Positions 19,488 through 54,952 of a stretch of DNA of 64,000 nt are shown here, piece by piece (position 1 is the stretch's first letter; each line of letters starts with the position of its first letter). The notes below the pieces were generated by a model. That model saw only the letters and a program-made list of their open reading frames with translations, was not told where the DNA came from and did not search any database. Origin of the DNA: an uncultured Methanosarcinales archaeon (GTDB taxonomy: Archaea; Nanobdellota; Nanobdellia; Woesearchaeales; JAHJBD01); the NCBI GenBank assembly GCA_964534665.1, contig CAZHRT010000002.1:42231-106230 (forward strand). The letters run 5' to 3'. A program made the translations under genes and the position numbers.

Positions 19488-19613
19488 ATGGATTATTCAA
19501 GCAGTGTACAACAAGATTACAATTCAGGAGCAGATTATTCTAGTTCTAGTAATGAAAAAAGAGGCATGTGCACAGCTAACTGTTCAAATTGTACTGGTTG
19601 CCGTTTTCAATGA
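19488..19613 (+). CDS. small Cys-rich peptide (41 aa), speculative
   Basis: own translation ...KRGMCTANCSNCTGCRFQ; no clear SD; overlaps zwf stop convergently. Confidence 0.2.
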   Translation: MDYSSSVQQDYNSGADYSSSSNEKRGMCTANCSNCTGCRFQ

Positions 19614-20821
19614 ATCAATCCTTTAGGTTCTTTAGAATAAATAATAGGTTTTTTCTTTAACTTCTCAATCTTATCAGTTATTATCCAGCTCTGTTTTAAC
19701 TCATCAGATGTTGTAAACAATGTTTTATCTCCTTTAATAACATCTGAAAGTAATCTTTGGTACGCTTCAATAGTGTTAGGTCCAAACTTGCAAGTATGAC
19801 AAAATTGCATTTCAACAGGTTCAATTCTTCTTTCATCTGTTAATGTGTTTAAATCAAAAATAATGTCTTGTTTTGGCTGAATATTAATTATTAACTTATT
19901 AGATTTAACAAACGGGTTACAATAAAGCTTACAAAATGTTTTTTTAAATTCTATTTCAACGTAAGCTTGTTTTTTCTTAAGTTTCTTACCTGTTTTTAAC
20001 AAGATTGGAGTACCTTTCCATCTTTTTGCATTACATACCAATTTAACTTCTGCATAAGTTTCAATATTTGATTTAATCTTATAACCCTTATACTGTCCTG
20101 TTATAACTTTTGAAGGTTTTATACATTTTAAAATTTTAACTTTTTCATTGTGTACATCTACCGATTGCAAAGTTTTAGGCGGTTCCATCAAAACTAATGA
20201 AGCAATTTGCAAAAGATGTGATTGTATCATGTCTCTTATTGCACCAGCTTTATCATAATATTCTAAACGTTGTTCAACACCAATATTTTCTTCAGATACA
20301 ATATGTATGTGATTGATAAATTTATTATTCCAAACATTCTCAAATAACGGATTTGAAAATCTTATACCTAAAATATTTTGAACTGTTTGCTTAGCTAAGT
20401 AATGATCAATCCTGTATATGTTCTTATCAGCAAAAACCGATTTAATGGATTTATCTAACTTATTTGAAGAAGCTAGACTATGTCCAAACGGTTTTTCAAA
20501 TACCACTTTAGCATTTTTAAAACGTTTAAGTTGTTTAACAATTATTGGCATAAACTCATAACTTACAGCAAGATAAAATACAGGATTTTTAACTTTTAAA
20601 TTTCTTAAAAAATCTTTATCTTTAAAATCTGCTTTGTAATAAGAAAGATTGTTAAGAAACTTTTTACTAACTTTAGATCCTTTTTCAACAAACTTACGAA
20701 ATTCTTTATTATTAAGATTTTTTCTACCTATTCCAATAACTTTAGTATTTAATTTATCTAAAGCAGTATAAAGTTTTCTCTTTGCTAGGTCGCCTGTTGC
20801 TCCAAATATTACAAATGTCAT
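19607..20821 (-). CDS. zwf: glucose-6-phosphate 1-dehydrogenase
   Basis: FGATGDLAKRKLYTAL NADP site, IYRIDHYLAKQ active-site motif. Confidence 0.8.
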   Translation of the reverse strand: MTFVIFGATGDLAKRKLYTALDKLNTKVIGIGRKNLNNKEFRKFVEKGSKVSKKFLNNLSYYKADFKDKDFLRNLKVKNPVFYLAVSYEFMPIIVKQLKRFKNAKVVFEKPFGHSLASSNKLDKSIKSVFADKNIYRIDHYLAKQTVQNILGIRFSNPLFENVWNNKFINHIHIVSEENIGVEQRLEYYDKAGAIRDMIQSHLLQIASLVLMEPPKTLQSVDVHNEKVKILKCIKPSKVITGQYKGYKIKSNIETYAEVKLVCNAKRWKGTPILLKTGKKLKKKQAYVEIEFKKTFCKLYCNPFVKSNKLIINIQPKQDIIFDLNTLTDERRIEPVEMQFCHTCKFGPNTIEAYQRLLSDVIKGDKTLFTTSDELKQSWIITDKIEKLKKKPIIYSKEPKGLIH

Positions 20822-21510
20822 TTTAAGTTTGTTAATACATAATGATTTTTTATTTTATTAATTAATTTAACAGGACATTGGTTTATTGATAACTTATTAT
20901 TTTGATATCTCTTCAAAGCATCTCTTTTATCTTCATCAATAAATAATACTATTGCAGTATTAGCTTGCAAAAACAATTTTCTTGAACCAGTCATCCTTTC
21001 TGGCGGTGGTTTAGGTGAATCATCCATTGTAATAAACTGTTTAGTTATATTTTTAACAGAATGATGCTCTGGGTAAAGTGCACCTACATGTCCATCTTCA
21101 CCTACACCAAAAATAACTATATCAAATCCTCCAAACTCTTTAAGTTCTTTAGTATAAGTCTTAACACCTTTATCTTTTGCTTTAGTATTAAGATTAAATG
21201 AATGGATATTTGATTTAGATATCTTCTTTTGTTTGATTAATATTGAAATAAAACTATCATTTGCTAACTTATAATTTGAATCTTTACTATTATGTGTAAC
21301 TAATCTGTCATCAACCCAGAAAATATGAATTTTTTCCCATGGCATATTCTTTGCTAATTTAAAATAATGAAATAATTCTTTGACACTTCTTCCACCAGGT
21401 ATTCCTAATACAACTTTATCTTTCTTTTTTAACATTTCTTTTATAGTTCTAATTATAATATATATAGAATGTTTAGCAATAACTTTCTTATCTTGATAAT
21501 ACAGTTTCAT
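20818..21510 (-). CDS. pgl: 6-phosphogluconolactonase
   Basis: LGIPGGRSV, IFGVGEDGHVGALYP. Confidence 0.75.
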   Translation of the reverse strand: MKLYYQDKKVIAKHSIYIIIRTIKEMLKKKDKVVLGIPGGRSVKELFHYFKLAKNMPWEKIHIFWVDDRLVTHNSKDSNYKLANDSFISILIKQKKISKSNIHSFNLNTKAKDKGVKTYTKELKEFGGFDIVIFGVGEDGHVGALYPEHHSVKNITKQFITMDDSPKPPPERMTGSRKLFLQANTAIVLFIDEDKRDALKRYQNNKLSINQCPVKLINKIKNHYVLTNLK

Positions 21511-22400
21511 TTTGGTTGTTTATGTCCTCCAAAACCAAACCTTAGAGATTGTACAACTTTCCCTTGATATCTTTTTGATTTCTTTGACTTAATCCTAGCT
21601 TTAACACTATCTTCAATCACTTGTACAGGAACTTTAAGTTCTTTTGCAGTCTTAATTGTCCATTCACCTTCTCCAGATAAACCAACAACACCATTATAAC
21701 CTTTTAATGCCTTAGAACTCTTGTAAGCATCTCTTGCAAGTTCAATTAACCAAGACCTTATTACAGAACCATTTGCCCAAACATCACACAACTTTTCTTT
21801 ATCTGGATTAAACTTAGATTTTTCAATAACTTCCATTCCTTCACCAATAGCCTGCATCATACCATACTCAATTCCATTATGCACCATCTTAACAAAATGT
21901 CCTGCACCTGGCTTTCCAAAATAACCATAACCTTTCTTTACACTTAAATCATTAAACAACTTTTCAGTTTTATTATAAGCTGTTAAATCACCACCAATCA
22001 TAAAATTAGCACCATTCCTAGCTCCAGAAATTCCACCAGATGTTCCAACATCCAAAAACTTTATTCCTTTTTTGTTTAATAGTGTAGCATGTTTTATACT
22101 ATCTTTATAGAATGAATTTCCACCATCAATTACAATATCTCCTTTTCTAAGATAAGGAATAATTGATTTTAAAGTAGCATCAGTTGCTTTACCAGCAGTA
22201 ACCATCAGCCAAATAACTTTATTTTTGCCTAATTTCTTCATTAATTCTTCAATAGAATACGCAGTGTCAATTTTATACTTTTTAATCTTATCAACTTTTT
22301 CTTTTGAACGATTATAAGCTATAACTTTATGTTTATGATTTTTAGCATTCAAAGCTAGATTAAAACCCATCTTTCCTAAACCAATAATTCCAAATCGCAT
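21507..22400 (-). CDS. gnd: 6-phosphogluconate dehydrogenase, short (~300 aa) decarboxylating form
   Basis: MRFGIIGLGKMGFNLA Rossmann, GAGHFVKMVHNGIEYGMMQAIGEG. Confidence 0.8.
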   Translation of the reverse strand: MRFGIIGLGKMGFNLALNAKNHKHKVIAYNRSKEKVDKIKKYKIDTAYSIEELMKKLGKNKVIWLMVTAGKATDATLKSIIPYLRKGDIVIDGGNSFYKDSIKHATLLNKKGIKFLDVGTSGGISGARNGANFMIGGDLTAYNKTEKLFNDLSVKKGYGYFGKPGAGHFVKMVHNGIEYGMMQAIGEGMEVIEKSKFNPDKEKLCDVWANGSVIRSWLIELARDAYKSSKALKGYNGVVGLSGEGEWTIKTAKELKVPVQVIEDSVKARIKSKKSKRYQGKVVQSLRFGFGGHKQPK

Positions 22401-22874: not shown

Positions 22875-23108
22875 ATGGTATCAGCAACTCAAGTATTATT
22901 TATTGCAGGTATAACAAACTTAATCTTTCTAGTACTTGTTGCTTTAACATGCAGATGTATAACAGGCTTTAAGTTTGGTATTAAATGGTTGCAAAAATCA
23001 AAATTCAAGAAATTATATGATTGGCATTGTTATTACTGGATTGGTTTTTTTGTTTCAGTTATAATTCATACATTTTTAGCATTTTATTTATTCGGGTGGC
23101 CCTCTTAG
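22875..23108 (+). CDS. small two-TM membrane protein
   Basis: 77 aa, two hydrophobic helices. Confidence 0.35.
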   Translation: MVSATQVLFIAGITNLIFLVLVALTCRCITGFKFGIKWLQKSKFKKLYDWHCYYWIGFFVSVIIHTFLAFYLFGWPS

Positions 23109-23567: not shown

Positions 23568-24077
23568 ATGAAATGGTTAATTAGTTTATTAGTTATTTTT
23601 TTAATTGCATGTTCAACACAACCGGTTGAGGTTAAAGATGTTTCAGCATCAAGTATTGATTGGAGAGATGTTGAATTTAAAGATGTTTTAACAGATCAAA
23701 CTTTTAAGATAAATGATTTAGATAAACCTATTTTAATTGAAACTTTTGCAGTTTGGTGTCCAACTTGTCGAAAACAGCAAGAGGAAATCCAAAAACTTCA
23801 TCTAGATGTAGGGGATTCTGTAACATCTGTTTCACTTGATGTGGACCCATCAGAAGATGAAGCAAAAGTCATTAAGCATGCTAACACTTATGGTTTTGAC
23901 TGGCTTTGGTCAGTGTCACCAGGTGAAGCAACAAAATCTTTGATTGACGAATTTGGGATTCAAGTTGCTAATGCACCTTCTGCACCAATTATATTAGTAT
24001 GTGAAACTAAAACTAAACTTTTAGATTTTGGTGTTAAATCAGTTGAAGAACTAAAACAAGAGGTAGAGGCCTGTTAA
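23568..24077 (+). CDS. thioredoxin-fold lipoprotein (TlpA/ResA-like thiol-disulfide oxidoreductase)
   Basis: lipobox LIACS, FAVWCPTCRKQ CxxC active site; GAGGTGA SD. Confidence 0.7.
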   Translation: MKWLISLLVIFLIACSTQPVEVKDVSASSIDWRDVEFKDVLTDQTFKINDLDKPILIETFAVWCPTCRKQQEEIQKLHLDVGDSVTSVSLDVDPSEDEAKVIKHANTYGFDWLWSVSPGEATKSLIDEFGIQVANAPSAPIILVCETKTKLLDFGVKSVEELKQEVEAC

Positions 24078-24745
24078 TGGTTTTTCTTGTTGAATTACTT
24101 TTATCTTTTGGACTAGGTTTTGCAGCAAACCTAAACCCCTGTGTTTTACCTTTATACCCAGGGTTTCTTTCTTATATTGCTAATAAACCAGAAGTTGCAG
24201 AAAAGAAAAATTTTACAAGAACTGCAGGTTTCTATGTTTTAGCAGGCTTAATGATTTTTATGATTCTAATTGGAGTAATAACAGCTTCTTTAGGATTATC
24301 AATTGGCAATTTTGTAAGCACTGTTTCCCCAATAGCTTTTGGCATCTTAGTAATCCTAGGTGTATTATTGTTATTTAACATTGACCTTACAAAATTACTT
24401 CCACAATGGAAAACACCTGTATTAAAAAATCCTTATACCTCAGCATTAATCTTTGGTTTTTTATATGGTCCAATTGTCATTCCTTGTAATGCTCCTTTAG
24501 TTTTTGCAGTATTTGCTTTCTCAGCTAGCGTTACTGGTTTTCTTAACACATTTGCTTTGTTCATGGCATTTGGTTTAGGTCTTGGAATACCTTTAGTAAT
24601 CATAGGTTTCCTTTCAGCTGCAAAAGGCTCTTGGCTTATCAAGAAGTTTGTTAAATATCACACATTGATAAATCGTATTGCAGGCACATTACTTATAATA
24701 TTAGGATTATATGAATTAATTTTTGTATTTAGAATATTTGGGTGA
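24077..24745 (+). CDS. ccdA: CcdA/DsbD-family transmembrane thiol-disulfide electron transporter
   Basis: NLNPCVLPLYPGF (TM1 Cys) and VIPCNAPLVF (TM4 Cys), 6 TM. Confidence 0.65.
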   Translation: MVFLVELLLSFGLGFAANLNPCVLPLYPGFLSYIANKPEVAEKKNFTRTAGFYVLAGLMIFMILIGVITASLGLSIGNFVSTVSPIAFGILVILGVLLLFNIDLTKLLPQWKTPVLKNPYTSALIFGFLYGPIVIPCNAPLVFAVFAFSASVTGFLNTFALFMAFGLGLGIPLVIIGFLSAAKGSWLIKKFVKYHTLINRIAGTLLIILGLYELIFVFRIFG

Positions 24746-25734
24746 AAAAATTGTACAGTACAAAAGATAGATGCTTGGTTGTACAGATGTTGCTCTTAGA
24801 TCAATGTAATCTTAGATGTAAGCACTGCTATGTAGGCGATCAAAAATTTACACCAAGACAGATGCCTACACTTGACACTGTTAAAGATTGGGTTGATAAA
24901 ATAGAGACATTTTCTAAAGAAAACCAGTTTAAATCAACCAGTCTGCATCTATCTGGTGGAGAGCCTTTTGCACGTCTTGATATCTTTGAGATATTAGATT
25001 ATTGTAAATCTAAAAACATCTCAACATTTATTCTTAGCAACGGAACATTGTTTACAAAAGAAACAGCCGACAAATTAATGTCAAGAGGAATTAAAAATAT
25101 TCAGTTCAGTATTGAAGGCCCAGAAGAAATTAATGATAATATTCGTGGAAAAGGAGTTTATCAAAAAGTTATGAATGCAATAAAGATTGCAAAAGAACAA
25201 GGTATGGGTGTAACTGTTAGTATAACACTAAGCAAAAATAATATTTCAATAATTAAAGATTTTATTAAAGAATTAGATCATCTTAATTTAATGTTTCATA
25301 TTAGAGAATTAATGCCTATTGGTGACGGTGCTCATATGAATATAATTACACCTAATCAAAGAAAGGATTTTTTTGAATTTTCTAGAGATTATTCAGGAAA
25401 ATCAATTGTTAAACCAGAAGATCCAATACAATGTAGTATAAAAGATGGAAAAGTTAGAAAAGGTGGTTGTGTTGCAATGAGAAACCATTTTTGCATAGAT
25501 GTTGATGGTTCTATATTTCCATGCGGATTATTACGTGAAAACATAGGAAATATCAATAATTTACAAAAAGTTTATAATTCTGAAATGTCTAGAAAGCTTA
25601 GAAACCGTGAATTAGAAGGAAAATGCGGTGAATGTGACATGTCAGATAGTTGCGGGGGTTGTCGTGCCTATGCTTTTTATGAAAGCAAAAGCATGTTAGC
25701 AGAAGACAACAGATGTTTGCTAGAAACTATGTGA
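24742..25734 (+). CDS. radical SAM enzyme with C-terminal SPASM/twitch Cys cluster
   Basis: CNLRCKHCY CxxxCxxC; C-term CGECDMSDSCGGCRAY; GTG start overlapping upstream stop (GTGA). Confidence 0.75.
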   Translation: MKKLYSTKDRCLVVQMLLLDQCNLRCKHCYVGDQKFTPRQMPTLDTVKDWVDKIETFSKENQFKSTSLHLSGGEPFARLDIFEILDYCKSKNISTFILSNGTLFTKETADKLMSRGIKNIQFSIEGPEEINDNIRGKGVYQKVMNAIKIAKEQGMGVTVSITLSKNNISIIKDFIKELDHLNLMFHIRELMPIGDGAHMNIITPNQRKDFFEFSRDYSGKSIVKPEDPIQCSIKDGKVRKGGCVAMRNHFCIDVDGSIFPCGLLRENIGNINNLQKVYNSEMSRKLRNRELEGKCGECDMSDSCGGCRAYAFYESKSMLAEDNRCLLETM

Positions 25735-25744
25735 GGTGAAATAA

Positions 25745-25804
25745 ATGGGTGATGAAGGTTCCTGCGGTGGCGGTGGAAGTTGCGGCGGAGACAAAAAAGA
25801 ATAG
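25745..25804 (+). CDS. 19-aa Cys/Gly-rich peptide MGDEGSCGGGGSCGGDKKE (candidate precursor peptide)
   Basis: own translation; GAGGTGA SD 5 nt upstream overlapping rSAM stop; followed by T-tract. Confidence 0.4.
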   Translation: MGDEGSCGGGGSCGGDKKE

Positions 25805-25831
25805 GTGAAAAATTTCATCTAAAATTGATTA

Positions 25832-25851
25832 TTATTTTTTATTTTTTTATT
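25832..25851 (+). terminator. T-tract (archaeal-type) terminator after peptide gene
   Basis: TTATTTTTTATTTTTTTATT immediately before next gene SD. Confidence 0.4.
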
Positions 25852-25862
25852 GAGGTGAAAAC

Positions 25863-26489
25863 ATGAAAAAATATTTATTAATTTTAATTATATTACTAGT
25901 TGGATGTGAAGCTTATGTTAGTTCTCAAGATGTAGTCCCACTTGATTCTGTTGAGATAAGGGAATACAAAGGAAAGGATTTATCCAGTGTTAATGATTTT
26001 AGAGAAAATTCAATTAAGGGTCCACAATATATTGATCTTGATAACTATGAACTTAAAATTAGTGGCTTAGTAGAAGAAGAAAAAACTTACACTTATGAAG
26101 AAGTTCTAGCACACCAATCATATTCAAAAGTTGTAACACTATACTGTGTTGAAGGTTGGGACGCAACTATTCTTTGGGAAGGTGTTTTAGTTAAAGACCT
26201 TATTGGCGATATAAATCCAGAAGCTAACACAATAATCTTCTCAGCATATGATGGTTACACTACTGCTTTACCCTTAGATTACATACTTGATAATGATATT
26301 TTATTAGCTTACAAGATGAATAATATAACAATGCCACCCGAACGCGGATATCCTTTTGAATTAGTTGCAGAAGATAAAGCTGGTTACAAATGGATAAAAT
26401 GGGTAACAGAGATTGAATTAAGTAATGATGAAAACTATCTAGGATACTGGGAAAAACGTGGTTGGGACAATGATGCTAATTTAGAATAA
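25863..26489 (+). CDS. lipoprotein with molybdopterin-oxidoreductase-like (sulfite oxidase/YedY-MsrP family) domain
   Basis: lipobox LLVGC; LYCVEGWDATILWEGVLVKDLI resembles Oxidored_molyb Cys-ligand region; assignment by memory only. Confidence 0.4.
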   Translation: MKKYLLILIILLVGCEAYVSSQDVVPLDSVEIREYKGKDLSSVNDFRENSIKGPQYIDLDNYELKISGLVEEEKTYTYEEVLAHQSYSKVVTLYCVEGWDATILWEGVLVKDLIGDINPEANTIIFSAYDGYTTALPLDYILDNDILLAYKMNNITMPPERGYPFELVAEDKAGYKWIKWVTEIELSNDENYLGYWEKRGWDNDANLE

Positions 26490-26499
26490 AGGTGATAAT

Positions 26500-27513
26500 A
26501 TGAAAAAAATAATAAGTTTAATTGCATTGTTTTTATTGATTGGATGTTCCCCAGTAGTACAAGATACAACAACTCCAGAAAGTGTTGAAGAATTAGACAT
26601 GTCTCAACCACCTTTTGCAGTATTACCAGCAGAAGCAGGTGAATCACCAAAGATCATGATGACTGATGATGGTATAAAATATATTATTGATCCAGATAAA
26701 ATTCGTGGTGGTGGCCCACCTAAAGATGGCATACCATCAATTGATAATCCTAAATACGTTACTGTTTCTAAGGCAGATGAATGGATCGAAGATAATGAAC
26801 TTGTTCTAGCAATAATTTACAATGGTGTTAAAAGAGTTTATCCATTACAAATATTAGTTTGGCATGAGATTGTTAATGATTTTATTGAAAACGATCCAAT
26901 CTTAATCACATATTGTCCTTTATGCGGTTCTGGAATTGCATATGAAAGAAAAATCAATAATCTGGAAGTTGAATTTGGAACCTCTGGTAAATTATACAAC
27001 TCTAATCTTGTTATGTATGATAGAAAAACAGACACTTACTGGAGCCAGATTGATGGATTAGCAATTGTTGGAGAACTTACAGGCTATCAACTTACAGCAA
27101 TATCAATTGATACAGTTGTTTGGAAAGATTGGAAAGCAGCTCATCCTGATTCAGAAGTTCTTAGCCAAGATACAGGACATTCTAGAAATTATGGCAGGGA
27201 TCCTTATGGTAATTATTATGAAGATAGCTTTCTTTTCTTCCCTGTTGAAGCTGAAGACAACCGTATCCATGCAAAAACAGTAATTTTTGGAATTAACGTT
27301 GACGGTGTTTACAAAGCCTACAAAGAAGAAGATTTATTGACAAGCGATATCATAGACCTTGTTAATGATATTAATCTCATAGTTGAACGAGATGATGTAG
27401 GGATTGTTAAGGTAACTAACACAGATAGTGGAGAAGAAATTGTTAAAGAAAGAGATTTTTGGTTTGCATGGTATGCATTCCATCCAGACACTTTGTTATA
27501 TGAGGTGAAATAA
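26500..27513 (+). CDS. lipoprotein, hypothetical
   Basis: lipobox LLIGCS; 337 aa; CPLCGSG motif; no family recognised. Confidence 0.45.
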   Translation: MKKIISLIALFLLIGCSPVVQDTTTPESVEELDMSQPPFAVLPAEAGESPKIMMTDDGIKYIIDPDKIRGGGPPKDGIPSIDNPKYVTVSKADEWIEDNELVLAIIYNGVKRVYPLQILVWHEIVNDFIENDPILITYCPLCGSGIAYERKINNLEVEFGTSGKLYNSNLVMYDRKTDTYWSQIDGLAIVGELTGYQLTAISIDTVVWKDWKAAHPDSEVLSQDTGHSRNYGRDPYGNYYEDSFLFFPVEAEDNRIHAKTVIFGINVDGVYKAYKEEDLLTSDIIDLVNDINLIVERDDVGIVKVTNTDSGEEIVKERDFWFAWYAFHPDTLLYEVK

Positions 27514-27514
27514 A

Positions 27515-27985
27515 ATAAAATATATATTAATTGTAATAACCATATTATTACTTATTGGATGTACAGCTGAACAAGCAGATGTCCAGCCAGATGTAACAGA
27601 TACAATTGCAGATCTGCCGCCTGTTAATCCAACTCAAGAAGAGCCTAATACAGAAGAACCTATTGAAGAACCAGGACCAGAAAGCCTGCCACCTGAAAAA
27701 GGAGTAGCAGAAGATCTAGAACCAGACGCAGTAACAGAATCCACAGTCAATATTATTACAGTTGAAGAACTAGCATTACACGATAATGAAGAAGATTGCT
27801 GGATTGTTTATGAAGGCAGCATTTTTGATTATACAGGTGCTGGATTTCATCCAGCTATGGCAAAAGTATTTTGGAAATATTGTGGCGATGAAACTGGTTT
27901 TGAAGAAGGTGCAAAAGATAGACATTCAAATAGTGGTGTAGAAAGAGTTGAGAATTATGGTGAATATATAGGTGAACTAGAATGA
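27515..27985 (+). CDS. lipoprotein with cytochrome b5-like heme/steroid-binding domain; no canonical start codon
   Basis: own translation of frame after TGA at 27506: ...ILLLIGCTAEQADV...HDNEEDCWIVYEGSIFDYTGAGFHPA; no ATG/GTG/TTG between upstream stop and lipobox (candidate ATA/ATT start or frameshift). Confidence 0.35.
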   Translation: MKYILIVITILLLIGCTAEQADVQPDVTDTIADLPPVNPTQEEPNTEEPIEEPGPESLPPEKGVAEDLEPDAVTESTVNIITVEELALHDNEEDCWIVYEGSIFDYTGAGFHPAMAKVFWKYCGDETGFEEGAKDRHSNSGVERVENYGEYIGELE

Positions 27986-28125
27986 ACATGAAAGAAAATG
28001 ATGATATTACGGAAGAAAAAGAAGATGCAAAACAAAGATGTAAAGTTTGTGGCAAAGACTCTGGTGAAGACGGCCTTCACAAATGTGGGTGTTGTGGTCA
28101 ATGTTGTGAGTGTGGTGAGAAATGA
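27982..28125 (+). CDS. 47-aa Cys-rich peptide (metallothionein-like), ATGA-coupled on both sides
   Basis: own translation MNMKENDDITEEKEDAKQRCKVCGKDSGEDGLHKCGCCGQCCECGEK; AGGTGA 7 nt upstream. Confidence 0.4.
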   Translation: MNMKENDDITEEKEDAKQRCKVCGKDSGEDGLHKCGCCGQCCECGEK

Positions 28126-28928
28126 AAATATTTATTGATAGTGCAGATATTGATGAAATAGAAAAAGCCTATTCTTATGGTGTATTAGATGGTGTAACAA
28201 CAAACCCTAGCTTAATAAAAAAAGCTTCACAAAAACATAAAGTAAAAGATATGAATTCTTACATCAAGAAAATTCTTAAAGTTGCTCGTGGTACACCTGT
28301 AAGTTTAGAAGTTATTGGAAGCACGTATGATTCTATGGTTAAAGAAGGTAAAAAACTTTACAAGATGTTTAACCCGGTTGCAAAGAACGTTTACATAAAA
28401 GTTCCAGTAAATCCAGTTTTTGGTGATAAAATTAACCATTTTGATGGTTTAAAAGCTATTCAAGCATTTTCAAAAGCCAAGATTCCTGTAAACTGCACTT
28501 TAATCTTTACACCTGAACAAGCATTGTTAGCTGCTAAAGCAGGCGCTGCTTTTGTAAGCCCCTTTGCAGGGCGTATTGATGATTATATAAGAAAAGATAA
28601 TGGCAGAAATTTCAACAAAACAGATTATTTTCCAGAAGATGGTATAGAATCAAGAAAAGGCCTTTTGAATGATAACGGAATAGTTTCTGGTGTAGATTTA
28701 ATTGCACAAATAGTAGAAATATTTGATAATTACCAATTAAATACAGAAGTTTTAGCAGCTTCTATTAGAAATTCAAGACAAGCAAGAGAATCAGCTTTAG
28801 CAGGAGCAAACATCGCTACACTTCCTTTATCTGTAATTGAAGAATTACTTATACATCCAAAAACAATTGAAGGTATGGCAAAATTCACAGAAGATATTGT
28901 TCCTGAATATGCTAAATTGTTAAAATAG
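28122..28928 (+). CDS. tal: transaldolase / fructose-6-phosphate aldolase family
   Basis: MKIFIDSADIDEI...GVTTNPSLI signature. Confidence 0.75.
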   Translation: MKIFIDSADIDEIEKAYSYGVLDGVTTNPSLIKKASQKHKVKDMNSYIKKILKVARGTPVSLEVIGSTYDSMVKEGKKLYKMFNPVAKNVYIKVPVNPVFGDKINHFDGLKAIQAFSKAKIPVNCTLIFTPEQALLAAKAGAAFVSPFAGRIDDYIRKDNGRNFNKTDYFPEDGIESRKGLLNDNGIVSGVDLIAQIVEIFDNYQLNTEVLAASIRNSRQARESALAGANIATLPLSVIEELLIHPKTIEGMAKFTEDIVPEYAKLLK

Positions 28929-49689: not shown

Positions 49690-51395
49690 AAAATATTGTT
49701 TTAGCTGGCAACCCAAATGTTGGAAAATCTGTTTTCTTTAATTATTTTGGTGGTGTGTATGCAGATGTCAGTAATTTTCCAGGTACAACAGTTGAAGTAG
49801 CAAAAACACATTACAAAAATCATCAAATTCTTGATACTCCAGGAATTTATAACTTAGGAAAAGAAAATGATGAAGAAAAAGTAGCATTTGATATAATTAA
49901 AAAGGGAGATGCAATCCTAAATATTGTTGATGCAACCCATTTAGAAAGAGATATTTTCTTAACATTACAATTGATCGAATTAGGTAAACCCTTGATTGTT
50001 GCTTTAAATTTTATGGATGATGCTAAAGAAAATGGTGTTGATATAGATACTAAAAAACTAACAAAACTACTTGGTGTTGATATTATTGAAACAGTTGCAA
50101 CAAAAAATAAAGGATTGGATAAAATTAATTTTAAAAATTTTAAAAAAGGGCATTTAGTAAAATTAACAAAAATAGATTCTTGTAAATCAGCATGTAATGG
50201 TTGCGATCTTGATATGTTTCGAAGAAACAAAGTTGATAACATTATCAATAGCACTGTTAAATATAATTCAGGACCAAAGAAAGTTGGTGAAGTATTTGCT
50301 CGCTTATCAACACACCCTTTTGCTGGTGTAATAATTTTACTATTAATTATGTACTTATTATACTTGTTTGTGGGTGTGTTTGTTGCTCAAACAGTTGTTG
50401 GTGTAACAGAAGAGACAATTATGCAAGGTTATTACGAACCATTTATCATAAATACCCTCAGTAATTTAATTCCTCAAGGATCTGCTATTGGTACAATTGT
50501 ATATGGTGAGTTTGGTTTAATTACTATGACTATAACTTACTTACTAGGTTTATTATTACCCTTAGTGCTAGGTTTTTATCTAGTTCTTTCAATATTAGAA
50601 GATAGTGGTTATCTTCCAAGGTTAGCTGCATTAGTTGATAGATTACTAAATTTTATAGGTTTGAATGGCAAAGCAGTAATTCCTTTAATTCTTGGTCTTG
50701 GTTGTGTTACATGTGCAACAATAACAACAAGAATTCTTAAAACAAAGCGAGAAAAAACAATTGCAACTTCTATCTTACAGTTTGTCATACCTTGTTCTGC
50801 ACAAATAGGCGTTATAGCAGCATTACTTGCAATTGCAGGCAAAAAATACTTGATAGGTTATGTTTTAATCATATTCATTATTCTTGTCTTATTAGGCACA
50901 ATATTAAACAAATTCTTGCCAGGAAAATCTTCACAATTATTATTACACTTGCCTAGAATGAGACTACCAAGAATTAACAATGTTTTAAAGAAAACTTATA
51001 CTAAAACTAAATGTTTTATGAAAGAAGCAACTGTATGGTTCTTTATTGGTGCTTTTATTGTTGGTTTTATGCAAGTTACTGGATTATTGATTAGAATTCA
51101 GGAATGGATAAAACCTTTTGTTGTAGGTTTTTTACAACTTCCAAAAGAAGCAGCTGTTGCTTTTATCATGGGGCTAGTAAGACGAGATTTTGGGGCAGCT
51201 GGTTTTTATAACATGTCATTATCTCCACCACAAATACTAGTTGCTATGGTTACCATCACTTTATTTGTACCATGTATTGCTTCTGCAATGATTTTGTTTA
51301 AAGAACGTGGCTGGAAAACAGGATCTTTTATATGGTTAGGTACATGGATATTTGCTTTCTTAATTGGTGGTATAGTTTCCCATTTAATTATCTAA
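49686..51395 (+). CDS. feoB: ferrous iron transporter FeoB
   Basis: G1 IVLAGNPNVGKS, G-domain then ~8 TM with gate motif regions. Confidence 0.85.
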   Translation: MKNIVLAGNPNVGKSVFFNYFGGVYADVSNFPGTTVEVAKTHYKNHQILDTPGIYNLGKENDEEKVAFDIIKKGDAILNIVDATHLERDIFLTLQLIELGKPLIVALNFMDDAKENGVDIDTKKLTKLLGVDIIETVATKNKGLDKINFKNFKKGHLVKLTKIDSCKSACNGCDLDMFRRNKVDNIINSTVKYNSGPKKVGEVFARLSTHPFAGVIILLLIMYLLYLFVGVFVAQTVVGVTEETIMQGYYEPFIINTLSNLIPQGSAIGTIVYGEFGLITMTITYLLGLLLPLVLGFYLVLSILEDSGYLPRLAALVDRLLNFIGLNGKAVIPLILGLGCVTCATITTRILKTKREKTIATSILQFVIPCSAQIGVIAALLAIAGKKYLIGYVLIIFIILVLLGTILNKFLPGKSSQLLLHLPRMRLPRINNVLKKTYTKTKCFMKEATVWFFIGAFIVGFMQVTGLLIRIQEWIKPFVVGFLQLPKEAAVAFIMGLVRRDFGAAGFYNMSLSPPQILVAMVTITLFVPCIASAMILFKERGWKTGSFIWLGTWIFAFLIGGIVSHLII

Positions 51396-52613
51396 CCAAG
51401 GTTCAATAACTCTATCTAAAGCACCTTGAATATAACTTAAGAAAACTCCATAATTAGTATATGGTATACCTAAACTATTAAGGTCTCTTAATCTTGCAGC
51501 AATTTTTTGAGAAGATATCATGCAACCACCACAATGTATAATCAACTTATATTCCATTAATTTATTATTTTCTTGAAACTCTCTCCCAAAATTATGTTGA
51601 ACAACAACACCAGGATATTTCTGAGACATATATTCAGGAATTTGTTTTGTTCCAATATCTTCACCAATCCTTGAATGATTGCACGCTTCTACAATTAATA
51701 TCTTATCACCCACAACTAAACTATCAAGCATCTTAACACCTTCAACAAATTCATTTAAACGCCCTTTTGAAACATAATTTATCATAACTATGGAAAAAGT
51801 AGTTAACATAATATCCTCTGGCACAAGTTTATGCATGATATCCATTGCTTGACTATCTGTTATAATTGCTTTAGGCCTTTTCTTAAAACTTTCAAGATAA
51901 CTATGAAAACGCATAATTTCTGTTTCATCACCTTGCCTTATTTTAACTAAATCCATTCGATAACAACTAGGATATGCCCAATTTCTTGTGATAAACTCAT
52001 CCACCATTGCTTGAGGCCTTAGATATCTTCCAGTAGGTGTTTCAATATCCATTGGAATATTCAATACATAAAATTCATCTTTTTCAATAAATGGCAATAA
52101 CTCAATTTTCTTATTTTTTGATTCAAAGTTTTCTAAAATAAAATTTAGTAACTCTTGCCTATAATTTTCATCATTAGCTTTAATTCTAATCTTTTTATAA
52201 AACTTCAATAATTTGATTTTATCATCAGCATTATTTTCATCCTCAAACAAATTATAAACTATCAATATTTGTTTATTTAATTCTCGAGCATTTTTTAATA
52301 TCTTATCTTCAGTATCAAGATATTCTTTAGATGGATCAATAACTAACAATACAAGGTCACATTCTTTTAGATCAGAAATAATTTTTAATCGCTTTTTTTC
52401 TCCAAGTTGATCTGTTTCATCATAACCAGCAGTATCAAACAGTTTAACAGGTCCTAAACCATGAATCTCTTGTAAAGTAGTCTTTGTATCAGCAGTTGTT
52501 CCAGGTGTTGAATCAACAATTGAAGTTATTTGTTGAGTTAAAAGATTCATAACACTACTTTTTCCCACATTCATCCTTCCAAATATTCCAATATTATCTC
52601 TGTCTATTAGCAT
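51384..52613 (-). CDS. hydF: [FeFe]-hydrogenase maturase GTPase HydF
   Basis: GIFGRMNVGKSS G1; C-term EACNHSRIG (CxH) and IIHCGGCM (HCxxC) cluster motifs. Confidence 0.7.
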   Translation of the reverse strand: MLIDRDNIGIFGRMNVGKSSVMNLLTQQITSIVDSTPGTTADTKTTLQEIHGLGPVKLFDTAGYDETDQLGEKKRLKIISDLKECDLVLLVIDPSKEYLDTEDKILKNARELNKQILIVYNLFEDENNADDKIKLLKFYKKIRIKANDENYRQELLNFILENFESKNKKIELLPFIEKDEFYVLNIPMDIETPTGRYLRPQAMVDEFITRNWAYPSCYRMDLVKIRQGDETEIMRFHSYLESFKKRPKAIITDSQAMDIMHKLVPEDIMLTTFSIVMINYVSKGRLNEFVEGVKMLDSLVVGDKILIVEACNHSRIGEDIGTKQIPEYMSQKYPGVVVQHNFGREFQENNKLMEYKLIIHCGGCMISSQKIAARLRDLNSLGIPYTNYGVFLSYIQGALDRVIEPWLDN

Positions 52614-53607
52614 AGTTTAACGAGTCACCCCATTCTCCAAACGCAGGTGTCAGACCAGTAGATTTAATCCTTTGCGTTATACAACCTAAACATTCTTCAG
52701 AAGTTTCATTGATGCAAGGTTTATCATCATATAATAGATATTGATTACGATACTTTGTTGGTGTAGTTATTGGCATTATAATATTAGCACCCGCTTTTAA
52801 TCCTAACTCTCTTCCAATAGGATTTAACACCTGTAATGCTGTTGTTGATGCAATATTTATGTTAGGCATTAATATTCTTAAGGCAGCAATCATATTTAAT
52901 GATAAATCAAGATCAGCATTAACATCTTTTCTTAGATATGGTCCCATGCCAACCATATCAACATCAATTTCTTTAAAGAATAAAAGGTCTTTAGCAAGAT
53001 TCTCAATTGTTTGGAACGGAGAATTAATCATAACACCTGTTCCAACCTGAAAACCAATATCTTTTAGATCTTTAAGACACTGTTTTCTAGTATCAAAACT
53101 CATATTAGCTGGGTGTAATCTTTCATAATGTTTTTTATCAGAAGTTTCAATCCTTAATAGATATCTGTGAGCACCAGCATCAAAGAACCTTTGAAATATT
53201 TCTTTAGTTTGTTCACCAACACATAAGGTAATCCCAAGCTTTGGAAATTTCTCTTTAATTTGCTTAACAACATCTTCAACAAAGTCAATAAACTTATAAT
53301 CTTGTCTTTCACCTGATTGTAATACAATTGAACCATAATTAACATCATTACAAAATTTAGCACTATCTAAAATCTCTTGTTTAGTCATCTTATATCTTTT
53401 AACATCTTTACTTTTGCTAATACCACAATACCCACAATCATTATCACAGATATTCGAAAACTCAATTAATCCTCTAAAATAAACCTTATTTTTTACAGTT
53501 TTATCTCTAATTTCAGCAGCTTTCTTATGCAAACTCTTTTGCTCTTCTCCTTTAGCATTCAACTGTTCTAATAATTCAGAAATATAAGTCTCGTTCTCCA
53601 TTTTCAA
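52594..53607 (-). CDS. hydE: [FeFe]-hydrogenase maturase radical SAM HydE (biotin-synthase-like)
   Basis: NICDNDCGYCG CxxxCxxC near N-terminus, ~340 aa BioB-like. Confidence 0.65.
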   Translation of the reverse strand: MKMENETYISELLEQLNAKGEEQKSLHKKAAEIRDKTVKNKVYFRGLIEFSNICDNDCGYCGISKSKDVKRYKMTKQEILDSAKFCNDVNYGSIVLQSGERQDYKFIDFVEDVVKQIKEKFPKLGITLCVGEQTKEIFQRFFDAGAHRYLLRIETSDKKHYERLHPANMSFDTRKQCLKDLKDIGFQVGTGVMINSPFQTIENLAKDLLFFKEIDVDMVGMGPYLRKDVNADLDLSLNMIAALRILMPNINIASTTALQVLNPIGRELGLKAGANIIMPITTPTKYRNQYLLYDDKPCINETSEECLGCITQRIKSTGLTPAFGEWGDSLNYANRQR

Positions 53608-54952
53608 TTCTTTTTAGATATTTGTTTGTTAATTCCTTTCTTTCTTCACTTGGAATATTTTCAATTTCTTTTTTTATAATCTCATTACCTGATTGTTTTG
53701 TTTCAATATCAGCATAATCAACTAAATATTCTTTTAATGTTGTTAGAGCATTTGGTAAACAATGTAATTTAATCAATCCAGGTTTTGCTAAATCCATAAA
53801 ATCCTTGCCAACTCTTCCTAACCTATAACATCCAGTACAAAATGAAGGAACATAACCTTGATTTAGAACTGAACTGATAATTTCCCCTGTAGATCTTGTA
53901 TCATTTAAAGAAAACTGTTCTTCATTTTCAGGGTTTACTATAGATTCTTCATATCCACCAGGGTTAGTTTTTGAACCAGCACTAATTTGGCTAACTCCAA
54001 GATCAAAAACTTGTTTACGCATGTCAGCAGATTCTCTTGTTGATAATATTATCCCTGTATAAGGGACAGCACATCTTAGTACAGCAACTATTTTTTTAAA
54101 ATCCTTATCTGATACTGGGTGAGGTATATTATTTGCAGCAGGTGCGTTCTGTGCAGGTTCTAACCTAGGAACAGATATGGTATGTGGTCCAACATTAAAT
54201 TTTTCATCTAAATGTTTAGCATGTTGTATTAATGCTAACACTTCAAACCTGTAATCATACAATCCAAACAATGCACCAATACCAACATCATTTATTCCAT
54301 TACTTAATGCACGATCCATACATTCGATTCTCCAATTATAATCTGCTTTCTTTCCAGTTGGATGCATTTCCTTATATGTGTCATGATGGTATGTTTCCTG
54401 AAAAACAGTATATGTTCCAATTTTTACATTATTTAAAATCTTAAATTGGTCGTCTGTTAAAGGAGCAATTTCAATATTTATTCTTCTGATTGAATTACCT
54501 TTTGAATCTTTAACAGAATACACAGCTTTTATAGATTTAAAGAAATAATCTAGACTACATTCAGAATTCTCCCCCATTAACATTAATATTCTTTTGTGCC
54601 CTTGTTCAAGAATAAATTTTGTTTCTTTTTTAATTTGATCTAATGTAAGGCAAGTTCTTTTCATAGAAGTATTATCAATTCTAAAACCACAATAAAGACA
54701 ATTATTAGAACAATGATTAGAAACATACAAAGGTGCAAACAAAACTAACCTATTACCATAAATCAATTGCTTAATCTTTGAAGCAGTTTTGAATAACTTT
54801 TGTAGGTTTTCATCATCCTTAATATTAATTAATTTTGCAACATCTTCTAAAGACAATCCTTTAAGCTGTAATGCTTTGTCTAATACGAAATCAACATTCT
54901 GGGGATTAATATCTAACAAAGAGTTAATCAGATTTTCATCAATAAAATTCAT
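53576..54952 (-). CDS. hydG: [FeFe]-hydrogenase maturase radical SAM HydG (ThiH-like tyrosine lyase)
   Basis: SNHCSNNCLYCGF; C-terminal CTGC-x22-C auxiliary-cluster motif. Confidence 0.7.
   Translation of the reverse strand: MNFIDENLINSLLDINPQNVDFVLDKALQLKGLSLEDVAKLINIKDDENLQKLFKTASKIKQLIYGNRLVLFAPLYVSNHCSNNCLYCGFRIDNTSMKRTCLTLDQIKKETKFILEQGHKRILMLMGENSECSLDYFFKSIKAVYSVKDSKGNSIRRINIEIAPLTDDQFKILNNVKIGTYTVFQETYHHDTYKEMHPTGKKADYNWRIECMDRALSNGINDVGIGALFGLYDYRFEVLALIQHAKHLDEKFNVGPHTISVPRLEPAQNAPAANNIPHPVSDKDFKKIVAVLRCAVPYTGIILSTRESADMRKQVFDLGVSQISAGSKTNPGGYEESIVNPENEEQFSLNDTRSTGEIISSVLNQGYVPSFCTGCYRLGRVGKDFMDLAKPGLIKLHCLPNALTTLKEYLVDYADIETKQSGNEIIKKEIENIPSEERKELTNKYLKRIENGERDLYF

Follow-up and report, generated by a model that had tools for sequence, protein, structure and literature searches.

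The 64,000-nucleotide window analysed here (contig CAZHRT010000002.1 of assembly GCA_964534665.1, positions 42,231 to 106,230 of the forward strand), from an uncultured archaeon assigned by GTDB to the Woesearchaeales, encodes a radical S-adenosylmethionine (SAM) enzyme with a SPASM domain and, directly downstream, a 19-codon open reading frame (ORF) rich in Cys and Gly codons. Analysis of the sequence suggests, with a probability of roughly 50%, that this micro-ORF is a real peptide gene whose product is the substrate of the adjacent enzyme; any specific chemistry on the peptide is proposed with less confidence than that. Set within a thiol-redox stress operon, the pair probably represents a modified-peptide system that is undescribed and minimal to an unusual degree. 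Counted in favour of an enzyme-substrate relationship is the agreement in position, Shine-Dalgarno site and T-rich tract with the locus of the sole close homologue of the enzyme (P0002, 58% identical, on the archaeal contig L001).

The micro-ORF and its counterpart in a second genome

The enzyme gene stops at a TGA (25732-25734) within TGAGGTGA; a 5-nt spacer separates the GAGGTGA that overlaps this stop from the ATG of the micro-ORF at 25745, and the end of the enzyme gene lies 10 nt upstream of that ATG (Table 1). These coordinates confirm the initial annotation, which had described a TGA embedded in a GAGGTGA motif and, 5 nt later, an ATG opening a 19-aa peptide. The same layout, GAGGTGA-N4-7-ATG, also fronts the thioredoxin and Oxidored_molyb genes of the operon with similar spacing; the heptamer GAGGTGA occurs six times in the 64 kb, always on the + strand, and four of these copies belong to this operon. 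The peptide had been expected to escape standard gene callers, and six public assemblies of the same population indeed have no gene called between the radical SAM gene and the next gene; over the operon, these public copies show 100% identity to the window. Of the terminator that had been placed after the peptide, the T-rich tract is present and stands alone, a terminator scan having found no hairpin after the micro-ORF; because archaeal transcription termination uses oligo-T, the missing hairpin is expected and the assignment is plausible for an archaeon.

The micro-ORF of L001 has equivalent signals: a Shine-Dalgarno site (GGAGGTGA) followed by 4 nt and an ATG and, after the stop, a T7-C-T5 tract and a TATA-like TTTATATT before the next gene. 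Both predicted peptides contain D-[DE]-G-S-C-G-G with an acidic residue after it; each has two Cys and charged ends, and that of the window contains two GSCGG units. The shared core is written in different codons in the two genomes (Ser AGT vs TCC, Cys TGC vs TGT, Gly GGC vs GGT), which indicates conservation at the amino-acid rather than the nucleotide level, and the DNA of the two loci is otherwise poorly aligned beyond the core. The frame of the micro-ORF relative to the enzyme gene differs between window and L001, so the micro-ORFs are separate ORFs and not extensions of the enzyme; a read-through or frameshift tail was ruled out on the differing frames and on the Shine-Dalgarno site that each locus has of its own. 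The GC content of the window micro-ORF is 53%, compared with 30.6% for the window, a value reached by only 0.05% of 60-nt windows and attributable to the Gly and Cys codons. In Smith-Waterman comparisons the two peptides are reciprocal best matches: their score of 39 stands against a next best of 30 when 1,327 small ORFs from the window are compared and of 24 for the 176 small ORFs of L001. Across the other loci that were fetched, only three small ORFs out of 19,782 score as high (approximately 1.5e-4 per small ORF). The micro-ORF therefore appears to be a conserved coding feature, on two independent genomes only, with translation predicted from these signals.

No peptide family was recognized: hidden Markov models (HMMs) for SCIFF, ACGX-repeat, CXXX-repeat and other peptides gave no NCBIfam match at E <= 10 to the peptide of the window (extended to 20 aa by a C-terminal X), to that of L001 (21 aa) or to the 31-aa called form of the latter. 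A glycyl-radical-type peptide was considered and dropped, as the motif RVxG[FYW] is absent.

A search of 5.8 billion proteins with the enzyme returned the window's own cluster (100% identity), one relative at 58% (P0002) and then only proteins at 45% or below, and scans of metagenomes, GTDB genomes and IMG/VR gave no enzyme homologue closer than 42%. About ten homologues at 39-45% belong to Hydrothermarchaeota, an Asgard metagenome-assembled genome (MAG), a Halobacteriota MAG and several metagenome contigs. Micro-ORFs were sought by motif and composition in 127-133 loci (about 1 Mb), covering 400 nt on either side of each radical SAM gene. A GSCGG-type micro-ORF, which the initial annotation had proposed to look for beside homologues in other genomes, is present downstream of the enzyme in L001, so that both clade members of more than 50% identity (2/2) have an adjacent short ORF. 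It is not always adjacent: more than 100 relatives at 25-35% identity have no comparable ORF within that distance, nor do the homologues at 39-45%. A lack of the micro-ORF in relatives, which the initial annotation had named as counting against its reading, is thus observed for the distant relatives and not for the close one.

Several of these results weigh against the enzyme-substrate relationship. The roughly ten homologues at 39-45% have no comparable ORF within 400 nt on either side and several of them adjoin a gene for a B12-binding radical SAM protein instead; the clade is consequently not uniformly linked to a peptide, and independent enzyme-peptide loci number only two. Beyond a core of seven residues the two peptides diverge, and their second Cys is conserved neither in position nor in spacing. 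A GGTGA with an ATG after it is unspecific by itself: of the 22 occurrences in the window, 13 lead into ORFs of fewer than 60 aa. The locus has no leader, no recognition element (RRE) for peptides made by the ribosome and modified after translation (RiPPs), no protease and no exporter, and the whole peptide is 19-21 aa long. Finally, the best curated HMMs for the enzyme mix tetrapyrrole enzymes (AhbD, NirJ2) with peptide maturases, all of them far below cutoff.

Some observations fit the idea that the micro-ORF is not a functional peptide gene at all, and serves instead in coupling or regulation or arose by chance within a G-rich spacer before the T-tract: it is very short and without family match, Shine-Dalgarno-plus-ATG sites in the window often open short ORFs, more distant relatives do not have it, and folding of the region is slightly more favourable than that of shuffled sequence (z = -2.0). 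We regard this as very unlikely, given conservation at the amino-acid level with Ser encoded by AGT in one core and TCC in the other, a reciprocal-best match against the low background given above, a Shine-Dalgarno spacing of the same kind as that of bona fide genes of the operon, and a DNA alignment that displays no conserved RNA or DNA element. A conserved RNA element was rejected on this poor alignment and on the small z-score, and an Rfam search of the window gave no match.

The Shine-Dalgarno motif is part of a longer repeat in the operon. The 13-mer GAGGTGAAATAAA occurs three times on the + strand (23555, 25733 and 27502), each copy spanning or abutting a stop codon and constituting the Shine-Dalgarno site of the following ORF.

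Enzyme family and candidate reactions

The enzyme matches Radical_SAM (PF04055, 3.2e-25), SPASM (PF13186, 5.6e-8) and Fer4_12 in Pfam. Its cluster motif C22-x3-C26-x2-C29 (CX3CX2C, residues 22-29) is that of the radical SAM superfamily, in which it belongs to a partial TIM barrel, and it has the full seven-Cys pattern of the SPASM subfamily, CX9-15GX4C ... CX2CX5CX2-3C ... C, which serves two auxiliary 4Fe-4S clusters (C243-x12-G-x4-C261 ... C295-x2-C298-x5-C304-x2-C307 ... C325), with all seven cysteines invariant or nearly so across 33 homologues; the initial assignment from a CxxxCxxC and C-terminal SPASM cysteines is thus upheld by complete motifs and by the Pfam matches. About 20 residues precede CX3CX2C, an N-terminal RRE is absent, and the AlphaFold2 (AF2) model (pLDDT 89.9) consists of alternating beta-alpha units. 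The public gene call, made from ATG 24787 (315 aa), lacks conserved residues of the N terminus: Q15 and an LVxQ stretch, encoded 5' of this ATG, are kept in all homologues of the alignment. Translation therefore more likely begins at GTG 24742, in an overlap with the stop codon of the CcdA gene, or at TTG 24751, 5 nt after a GGTGA.

Within the SPASM domain the motif D-S-C-G-G-C-R (25645-25670) resembles the G-S-C-G-G-D of the peptide (25760-25790), and the octamer AGTTGCGG is common to the DNA of both, possibly by coincidence.

The enzyme belongs to an uncharacterised SPASM clade outside all curated families tested. It is matched by 83 radical SAM/SPASM families of NCBIfam, and the best 25 of these 83 all score below their curated cutoffs: TIGR04053 is highest (152 bits vs a cutoff of 395), AhbD (TIGR04545) scores 141 bits vs 500 in a match limited to the N-terminal half or radical SAM core, SbtM (TIGR04082) scores 124 bits vs 350 in a near full-length match over the catalytic and SPASM parts, MftC scores 113 bits over its full length, and NirJ/NirJ2, ACGX-system, PapB, StsB and CcpM models are likewise below cutoff, as are the scores of the relatives P0002-P0022. 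Sequence matches in the PDB are confined to the peptide maturases CteB (best, 1.6e-14), SkfB, PqqE and TigE. Foldseek with the AF2 model finds SuiB, SkfB and anaerobic sulfatase-maturating enzyme (anSME) at TM-scores of approximately 0.7-0.75 and about 19% identity, and the best length-normalised overlay is with anSMEcpe (TMq 0.75, TMt 0.69). Affiliation with sulfatase or cofactor maturases, which had been named as what would overturn the peptide interpretation, is not seen: the enzyme falls outside anSME, AhbD and the other curated families, and its nearest PDB sequences are maturases of peptides.

The JGI product name of the enzyme, 'AdoMet-dependent heme synthase', is probably an over-annotation; an AhbD or heme reading was rejected on HMM cutoff and context, no Ahb pathway genes being seen in the window or L001. 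In a broader form, the enzyme might act on a non-peptide or protein substrate (a tetrapyrrole-like or other small molecule, the ferredoxin:disulfide reductase-like protein (FDR) of the operon, the thioredoxin or the Mo-domain protein), while the micro-ORF encodes an independent small thiol- or metal-binding peptide that could be a dithiol substrate of FDR. Consistent with this, the best HMM scores include TIGR04053, AhbD and NirJ2, the enzyme has no RRE, the operon holds CcdA, a ResA-like thioredoxin and a cytochrome-b5-like protein, the relatives at 39-45% have no peptide and often have disulfide-reductase or thioredoxin neighbours, and each peptide has exactly two Cys with an FDR gene at both loci. 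We nevertheless consider such a division of roles unlikely: the curated scores are all 3-4 fold below cutoff and the AhbD match covers the radical SAM core only, L001 keeps enzyme and peptide despite having neither CcdA nor heme genes, the peptide follows the enzyme and not FDR (see below), and a distance of 10-11 nt between enzyme and peptide in both genomes would be hard to explain if the two were unrelated.

The structural overlay with anSMEcpe, an enzyme that has no RRE and binds short peptides, raises a different possibility, namely that the enzyme is an anSME-type maturase converting Cys to formylglycine in the peptide or in one of the exported operon proteins; the flexible, Gly-rich context of the candidate substrate Cys would suit this. 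Such an activity is highly improbable, since the motif C/S-x-P/A-x-R is absent from the peptide, no sulfatase gene is present in the operon, anSME families are not among the best 25 of the 83 NCBIfam matches, the PDB sequence search at E <= 1e-5 gave no match to anSME (4k36-4k39), and fold similarity at about 19% identity is common to all SPASM enzymes.

If the peptide is the substrate of the enzyme, it would be translated from its own Shine-Dalgarno site and, as the enzyme has no RRE (neither it nor any operon protein matches PF05402, PqqD) and the peptide no leader, would most likely bind directly inside the barrel, in the manner of short peptides with anSME, with recognition through the conserved core D-[DE]-G-S-C-G-G-[DE]. 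The Cys thiolate of GSCGG might then engage auxiliary cluster I, the 5'-deoxyadenosyl radical would take a hydrogen from a nearby residue, and a small Cys(i)-to-(i+3) thioether ring would form, for which C13-D16 and C7-G10 in the window and C11-E14 and C3-E6 in L001 are candidate pairs. A thioether mechanism of this kind is described for SPASM sacti-synthases (PMC10114670), and streptosactin contains unnested i-to-i+3 Cys-Gly/Ser sactionine rings (PMC8172795). The links of Cys to Asp or Glu in ranthipeptides would be a further parallel. The second chemical option is Cys oxidation, either thiooxazole-like as with SbtM, which acts on a Gly-Cys motif (PMC9204691), or of the anSME type. FDR would probably keep both peptide thiols reduced, cycle the product or otherwise service the system, a role that would fit an organism at an oxic-anoxic interface. 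The absence of an exporter or protease makes a cytoplasmic housekeeping role likelier than that of an antibiotic, and the product is probably redox or metal-related.

The sacti/ranthipeptide-like locus first proposed is retained in so far as a radical SAM/SPASM enzyme stands beside a conserved short Cys peptide; Cys/Gly-rich short ORFs beside radical SAM/SPASM genes, the Haft and Basu pairs, have been reviewed (PMC10114670). The leader, RRE, protease and exporter of such loci are missing, and a natural-product-type setting is not found, the locus being an FDR/CcdA/thioredoxin/MsrP-like redox operon instead. Sacti or ranthi chemistry is invoked here as an analogy, not as demonstrated membership.

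The redox operon and related loci

The genes of the operon are all on the + strand and end with a transaldolase gene that follows the gene for a 47-aa protein (Table 1). FDR consists of an N-terminal rubredoxin-like CxxC...CxxC domain and a ferredoxin:thioredoxin reductase (FTR) catalytic domain with CPC...CPC...CHC, the combination of a rubredoxin-like domain with CPC-x16-CPC-x-CHC by which FDRs are recognized; its best PDB match is 4tpu, the FDR of M. acetivorans, in an alignment that covers both domains in swapped order. Enzymes of this type reduce atypical thioredoxins and NrdH-like redoxins (PMC6262447).

Table 1. Coordinates of the radical SAM/SPASM enzyme gene, the micro-ORFs with their signals, and the other operon genes (window positions unless L001 is stated).
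Feature	Position	Strand	Basis or remarks
77-aa two-helix membrane protein, first operon gene	22875..23108	+	no Pfam/NCBIfam match; not conserved in L001
Ferredoxin:disulfide reductase-like protein (FDR), 150 aa	23109..23561	+	Pfam FeThRed_B 2.6e-17, RUBY_RBDX
Thioredoxin-fold lipoprotein (lipobox LIAC, active site WCPTC), predicted extracytoplasmic	23568..24077	+	Pfam Thioredoxin/Redoxin
CcdA/DsbD-type membrane thiol-disulfide electron transporter	24077..24745	+	Pfam DsbD_TM 8.5e-16
Radical SAM/SPASM enzyme, 330 aa	24742..25734	+	Pfam, NCBIfam, alignment, AF2 model
Shine-Dalgarno-like GAGGTGA of the micro-ORF, overlapping the stop of the radical SAM gene	25733..25739	+	sequence
Micro-ORF, 19 codons, MGDEGSCGGGGSCGGDKKE	25745..25804	+	translation; L001 counterpart; candidate substrate peptide
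T-rich tract T6-A-T7, possible archaeal oligo-T terminator or attenuator	25830..25851	+	sequence
MsrP/YedY-like molybdopterin-oxidoreductase-domain lipoprotein	25863..26489	+	Pfam Oxidored_molyb 5e-32
DUF3179 lipoprotein	26500..27513	+	Pfam DUF3179 3.5e-95
Cytochrome-b5-like lipoprotein, 156 aa	27515..27985	+	Pfam Cyt-b5 1.9e-7; frame translation
47-aa protein, eight Cys (…CKVCG…HKCGCCGQCCECGEK)	27982..28125	+	no family match; no L001 counterpart
L001 counterpart micro-ORF, 21 codons, MPCGDEDDGSCGGEDNTEEEY	L001 2380-2445		11 nt past P0002 stop

L001 carries, one after another, rubrerythrin, a rubredoxin-like ORF, an FTR catalytic ORF, the radical SAM enzyme, the peptide, the T-tract, nitroreductase, rubrerythrin and superoxide reductase; CcdA and heme genes are absent from this contig. 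The conserved unit is FDR, radical SAM enzyme and peptide within oxidative-stress neighbourhoods. An archaeal host, probably Woesearchaeota-like, is indicated by L21e, Rpb4 and SepF on L001, by a Ski2/DSHCT helicase in the window and by the closest named homologues of FDR, which are from Woesearchaeota and Nanoarchaeota. The FDR gene of the Woesearchaeota locus (L134) is surrounded by rubrerythrin, glutaredoxin, thioredoxin reductase and superoxide reductase genes and has an Oxidored_molyb gene beside it; that of the Nanoarchaeota locus (L135) is surrounded by genes for thioredoxin reductase, superoxide reductase, RpiB, Rpe, transketolase and transaldolase. Neither locus has the radical SAM gene or any GSCGG ORF, which indicates that the peptide tracks the enzyme and not FDR.

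This context allows a further interpretation, according to which the peptide serves as precursor to a small redox cofactor or a thiol of low molecular weight, by the logic of pyrroloquinoline quinone (PQQ) or mycofactocin, made by the radical SAM/SPASM enzyme, cycled by FDR and used by the neighbouring oxidative-stress enzymes. PqqE and MftC are radical SAM/SPASM enzymes acting on peptides of 20-30 aa, and MftC and PqqE figure among the HMM (113 bits) and PDB matches, respectively, of the enzyme. No exporter or protease is encoded, and the setting is one of redox housekeeping in both genomes (rubrerythrin, superoxide reductase and nitroreductase in L001; CcdA, thioredoxin and the MsrP-like protein in the window), with a conserved FDR-enzyme-peptide unit that in L001 is apparently one transcription unit ending at the T-tract. 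A chaperone of the PqqD/MftB type and tailoring enzymes (peptidase, oxidase) are, however, absent, the system occurs in two lineages only while the surrounding redox genes are widespread without it, and the argument is one from context alone. A precursor role of this sort is decidedly unlikely, and equally doubtful is its fuller form, in which a leaderless peptide of 19-21 residues in DPANN archaea would yield a redox-active or metal-binding thiol cofactor that FDR recycles for defence against oxidative stress.

L001 has one ORF for the rubredoxin-like module (48 aa, 943-1089) and another, overlapping it, for the FTR catalytic module (92 aa, 1086-1364), and in the window the two modules are fused; the difference reflects either a genuine split or an assembly frameshift. 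The MsrP/YedY-like protein begins (25863-25915) with a Sec-type lipoprotein signal, MKKYLLILIILLVGC, and has no twin-arginine motif, which is odd for an exported cofactor enzyme; it may bind no molybdenum cofactor or acquire it differently. The frame of the cytochrome-b5-like protein contains no ATG, GTG or TTG until its last 42 codons, and the public annotation comprises those 42 aa only; the GAGGTGA at 27502 is located 6 nt 5' of an ATA, from which translation yields a typical signal peptide (MKYILIVITILLLIGC), so that the ATA is a start codon of a non-canonical kind or else a decayed one. The 47-aa gene is coupled by ATGA overlaps to this gene upstream and to the transaldolase gene downstream, and its eight-Cys product may be unrelated to the system, may bind metal, or may be an alternative target of the radical SAM enzyme.

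Among the homologues at 39-44% identity, from Asgard, Halobacteriota and metagenome contigs, a two-radical-SAM cassette recurs (L005 266-2849, L090 36-3709, L091 3382-6954 and L003 6001-9391): a gene for a B12-binding radical SAM protein, often with one for an unannotated protein of about 370 aa, lies directly upstream of the homologue, and thiol-redox genes are near. This pairing of a B12-binding radical SAM protein with an enzyme homologue is a second, uncharacterised cassette. The thiol-redox neighbours of homologues at 39-45% include a thioredoxin-reductase-like protein (L002), a Pyr_redox_2/dimerisation protein (L091), a thioredoxin/glutaredoxin-like gene (L090) and FTR-like and DsbH genes (L003).

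The redox operon is flanked by genes for glucose-6-phosphate dehydrogenase, a 6-phosphogluconolactonase-like and a 6-phosphogluconate dehydrogenase-like protein (19607-22400, - strand) and by the transaldolase gene (28122-28928, +), and in L135 (1297-5001) genes for RpiB, Rpe, transketolase and transaldolase once more precede the FDR gene. The arrangement suggests that pentose-phosphate genes and thiol-redox genes have a conserved association among DPANN archaea. Elsewhere in the window (51384-54952, - strand), genes for HydF (GTPase, dimer and tetramer domains), a 337-aa HydE-like radical SAM protein and a 458-aa HydG-like protein with radical SAM and BATS domains are adjacent, a row that would make an [FeFe]-hydrogenase maturation set in a small-genome archaeon.

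Significance and relation to known systems

Pairs of a radical SAM/SPASM enzyme and a short Cys-rich peptide have repeatedly yielded new chemistry. The characterised pairs are nearly all bacterial, have a leader and an RRE, and belong to natural-product clusters; this pair is archaeal and has neither leader nor RRE. Judged from gene content and arrangement, it appears to be an undescribed minimal variant of the theme of a radical SAM enzyme with a target peptide, in an unusual host and context, with two genomes known. Should the peptide prove to be the substrate, a 19-mer that is easily synthesised and an enzyme of 330 aa would provide a minimal system for leader-independent recognition by SPASM enzymes, and there would be a hint that archaea with reduced genomes invest in a modified peptide for redox housekeeping. 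The cofactor interpretation, if true, would add a new class of peptide-derived cofactors and the smallest known radical-SAM RiPP system. There are also lessons for annotation: the peptide is invisible to gene callers, the 'heme synthase' name of the enzyme is unsupported, and its called start is too short.

Literature searches brought up no relevant work on an 'ACGX' system or on a SPASM enzyme linked to FTR, and the comparisons that can be made are with individual features of better known enzymes. Heme b synthase AhbD resembles the enzyme in being a radical SAM/SPASM protein of about 340 aa without RRE, and differs in that the match amounts to 141 of the 500 bits required and covers the core only, with no Ahb pathway genes seen nearby. 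The pairs PqqA/PqqE and MftA/MftC share a precursor of about 23-30 aa, a first step catalysed by a radical SAM/SPASM enzyme and a product that serves redox enzymes; they differ in requiring the PqqD or MftB chaperone and tailoring enzymes, which are absent here, and in a chemistry directed at Glu/Tyr or Val-Tyr rather than Cys, and their HMM scores are below cutoff.

Nearer to the proposed reactions is the thio(seleno)oxazole maturase SbtM, whose HMM (TIGR04082) aligns over nearly its full length (124 bits) and which abstracts a Cys beta-hydrogen at a conserved Gly-Cys/Sec motif (PMC9204691); unlike the enzyme of the window, SbtM has 516 aa with an N-terminal extension of about 200 aa and acts on a longer, selenocysteine-containing substrate, whereas the motif here is Ser-Cys-Gly-Gly. 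Streptosactin (GggA/GggB), a type II sactipeptide, has a Gly-rich Cys core in which two small thioether rings, unnested and of the Cys(i)-to-(i+3) kind, include Cys-x-x-Gly (PMC8172795), and the C7-G10 and C13-D16 spacings available in the window peptide would permit the same; it is, in contrast, bacterial, controlled by quorum sensing, fratricidal and made from a precursor whose leader is removed by a protease, and its enzyme is not related by family. With anSME the enzyme shares a compact radical SAM and SPASM architecture without RRE and the best global overlay, and the direct binding of short unstructured peptides by anSME is the behaviour proposed here; the differences are the absence of a CxPxR motif and of a sulfatase gene, and a sequence family other than that of anSME.

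SCIFF and its maturase CteB, from Clostridia, differ in that the SCIFF gene lies upstream of the enzyme gene and specifies about 45 aa, with six Cys and a leader, whereas the peptide here has 19-21 aa and two Cys and is encoded downstream, and in that CteB has an N-terminal RRE-like domain; the HMMs for SCIFF and its maturase were not reached at cutoff. Both systems nonetheless combine a radical SAM/SPASM enzyme with one short Cys/Gly-rich peptide and are without a dedicated exporter or protease, a housekeeping role is suspected for both, CteB is the best PDB sequence match of the enzyme, and binding of a Cys thiolate to auxiliary cluster I with thioether formation, as in CteB, is the course proposed for the archaeal pair.

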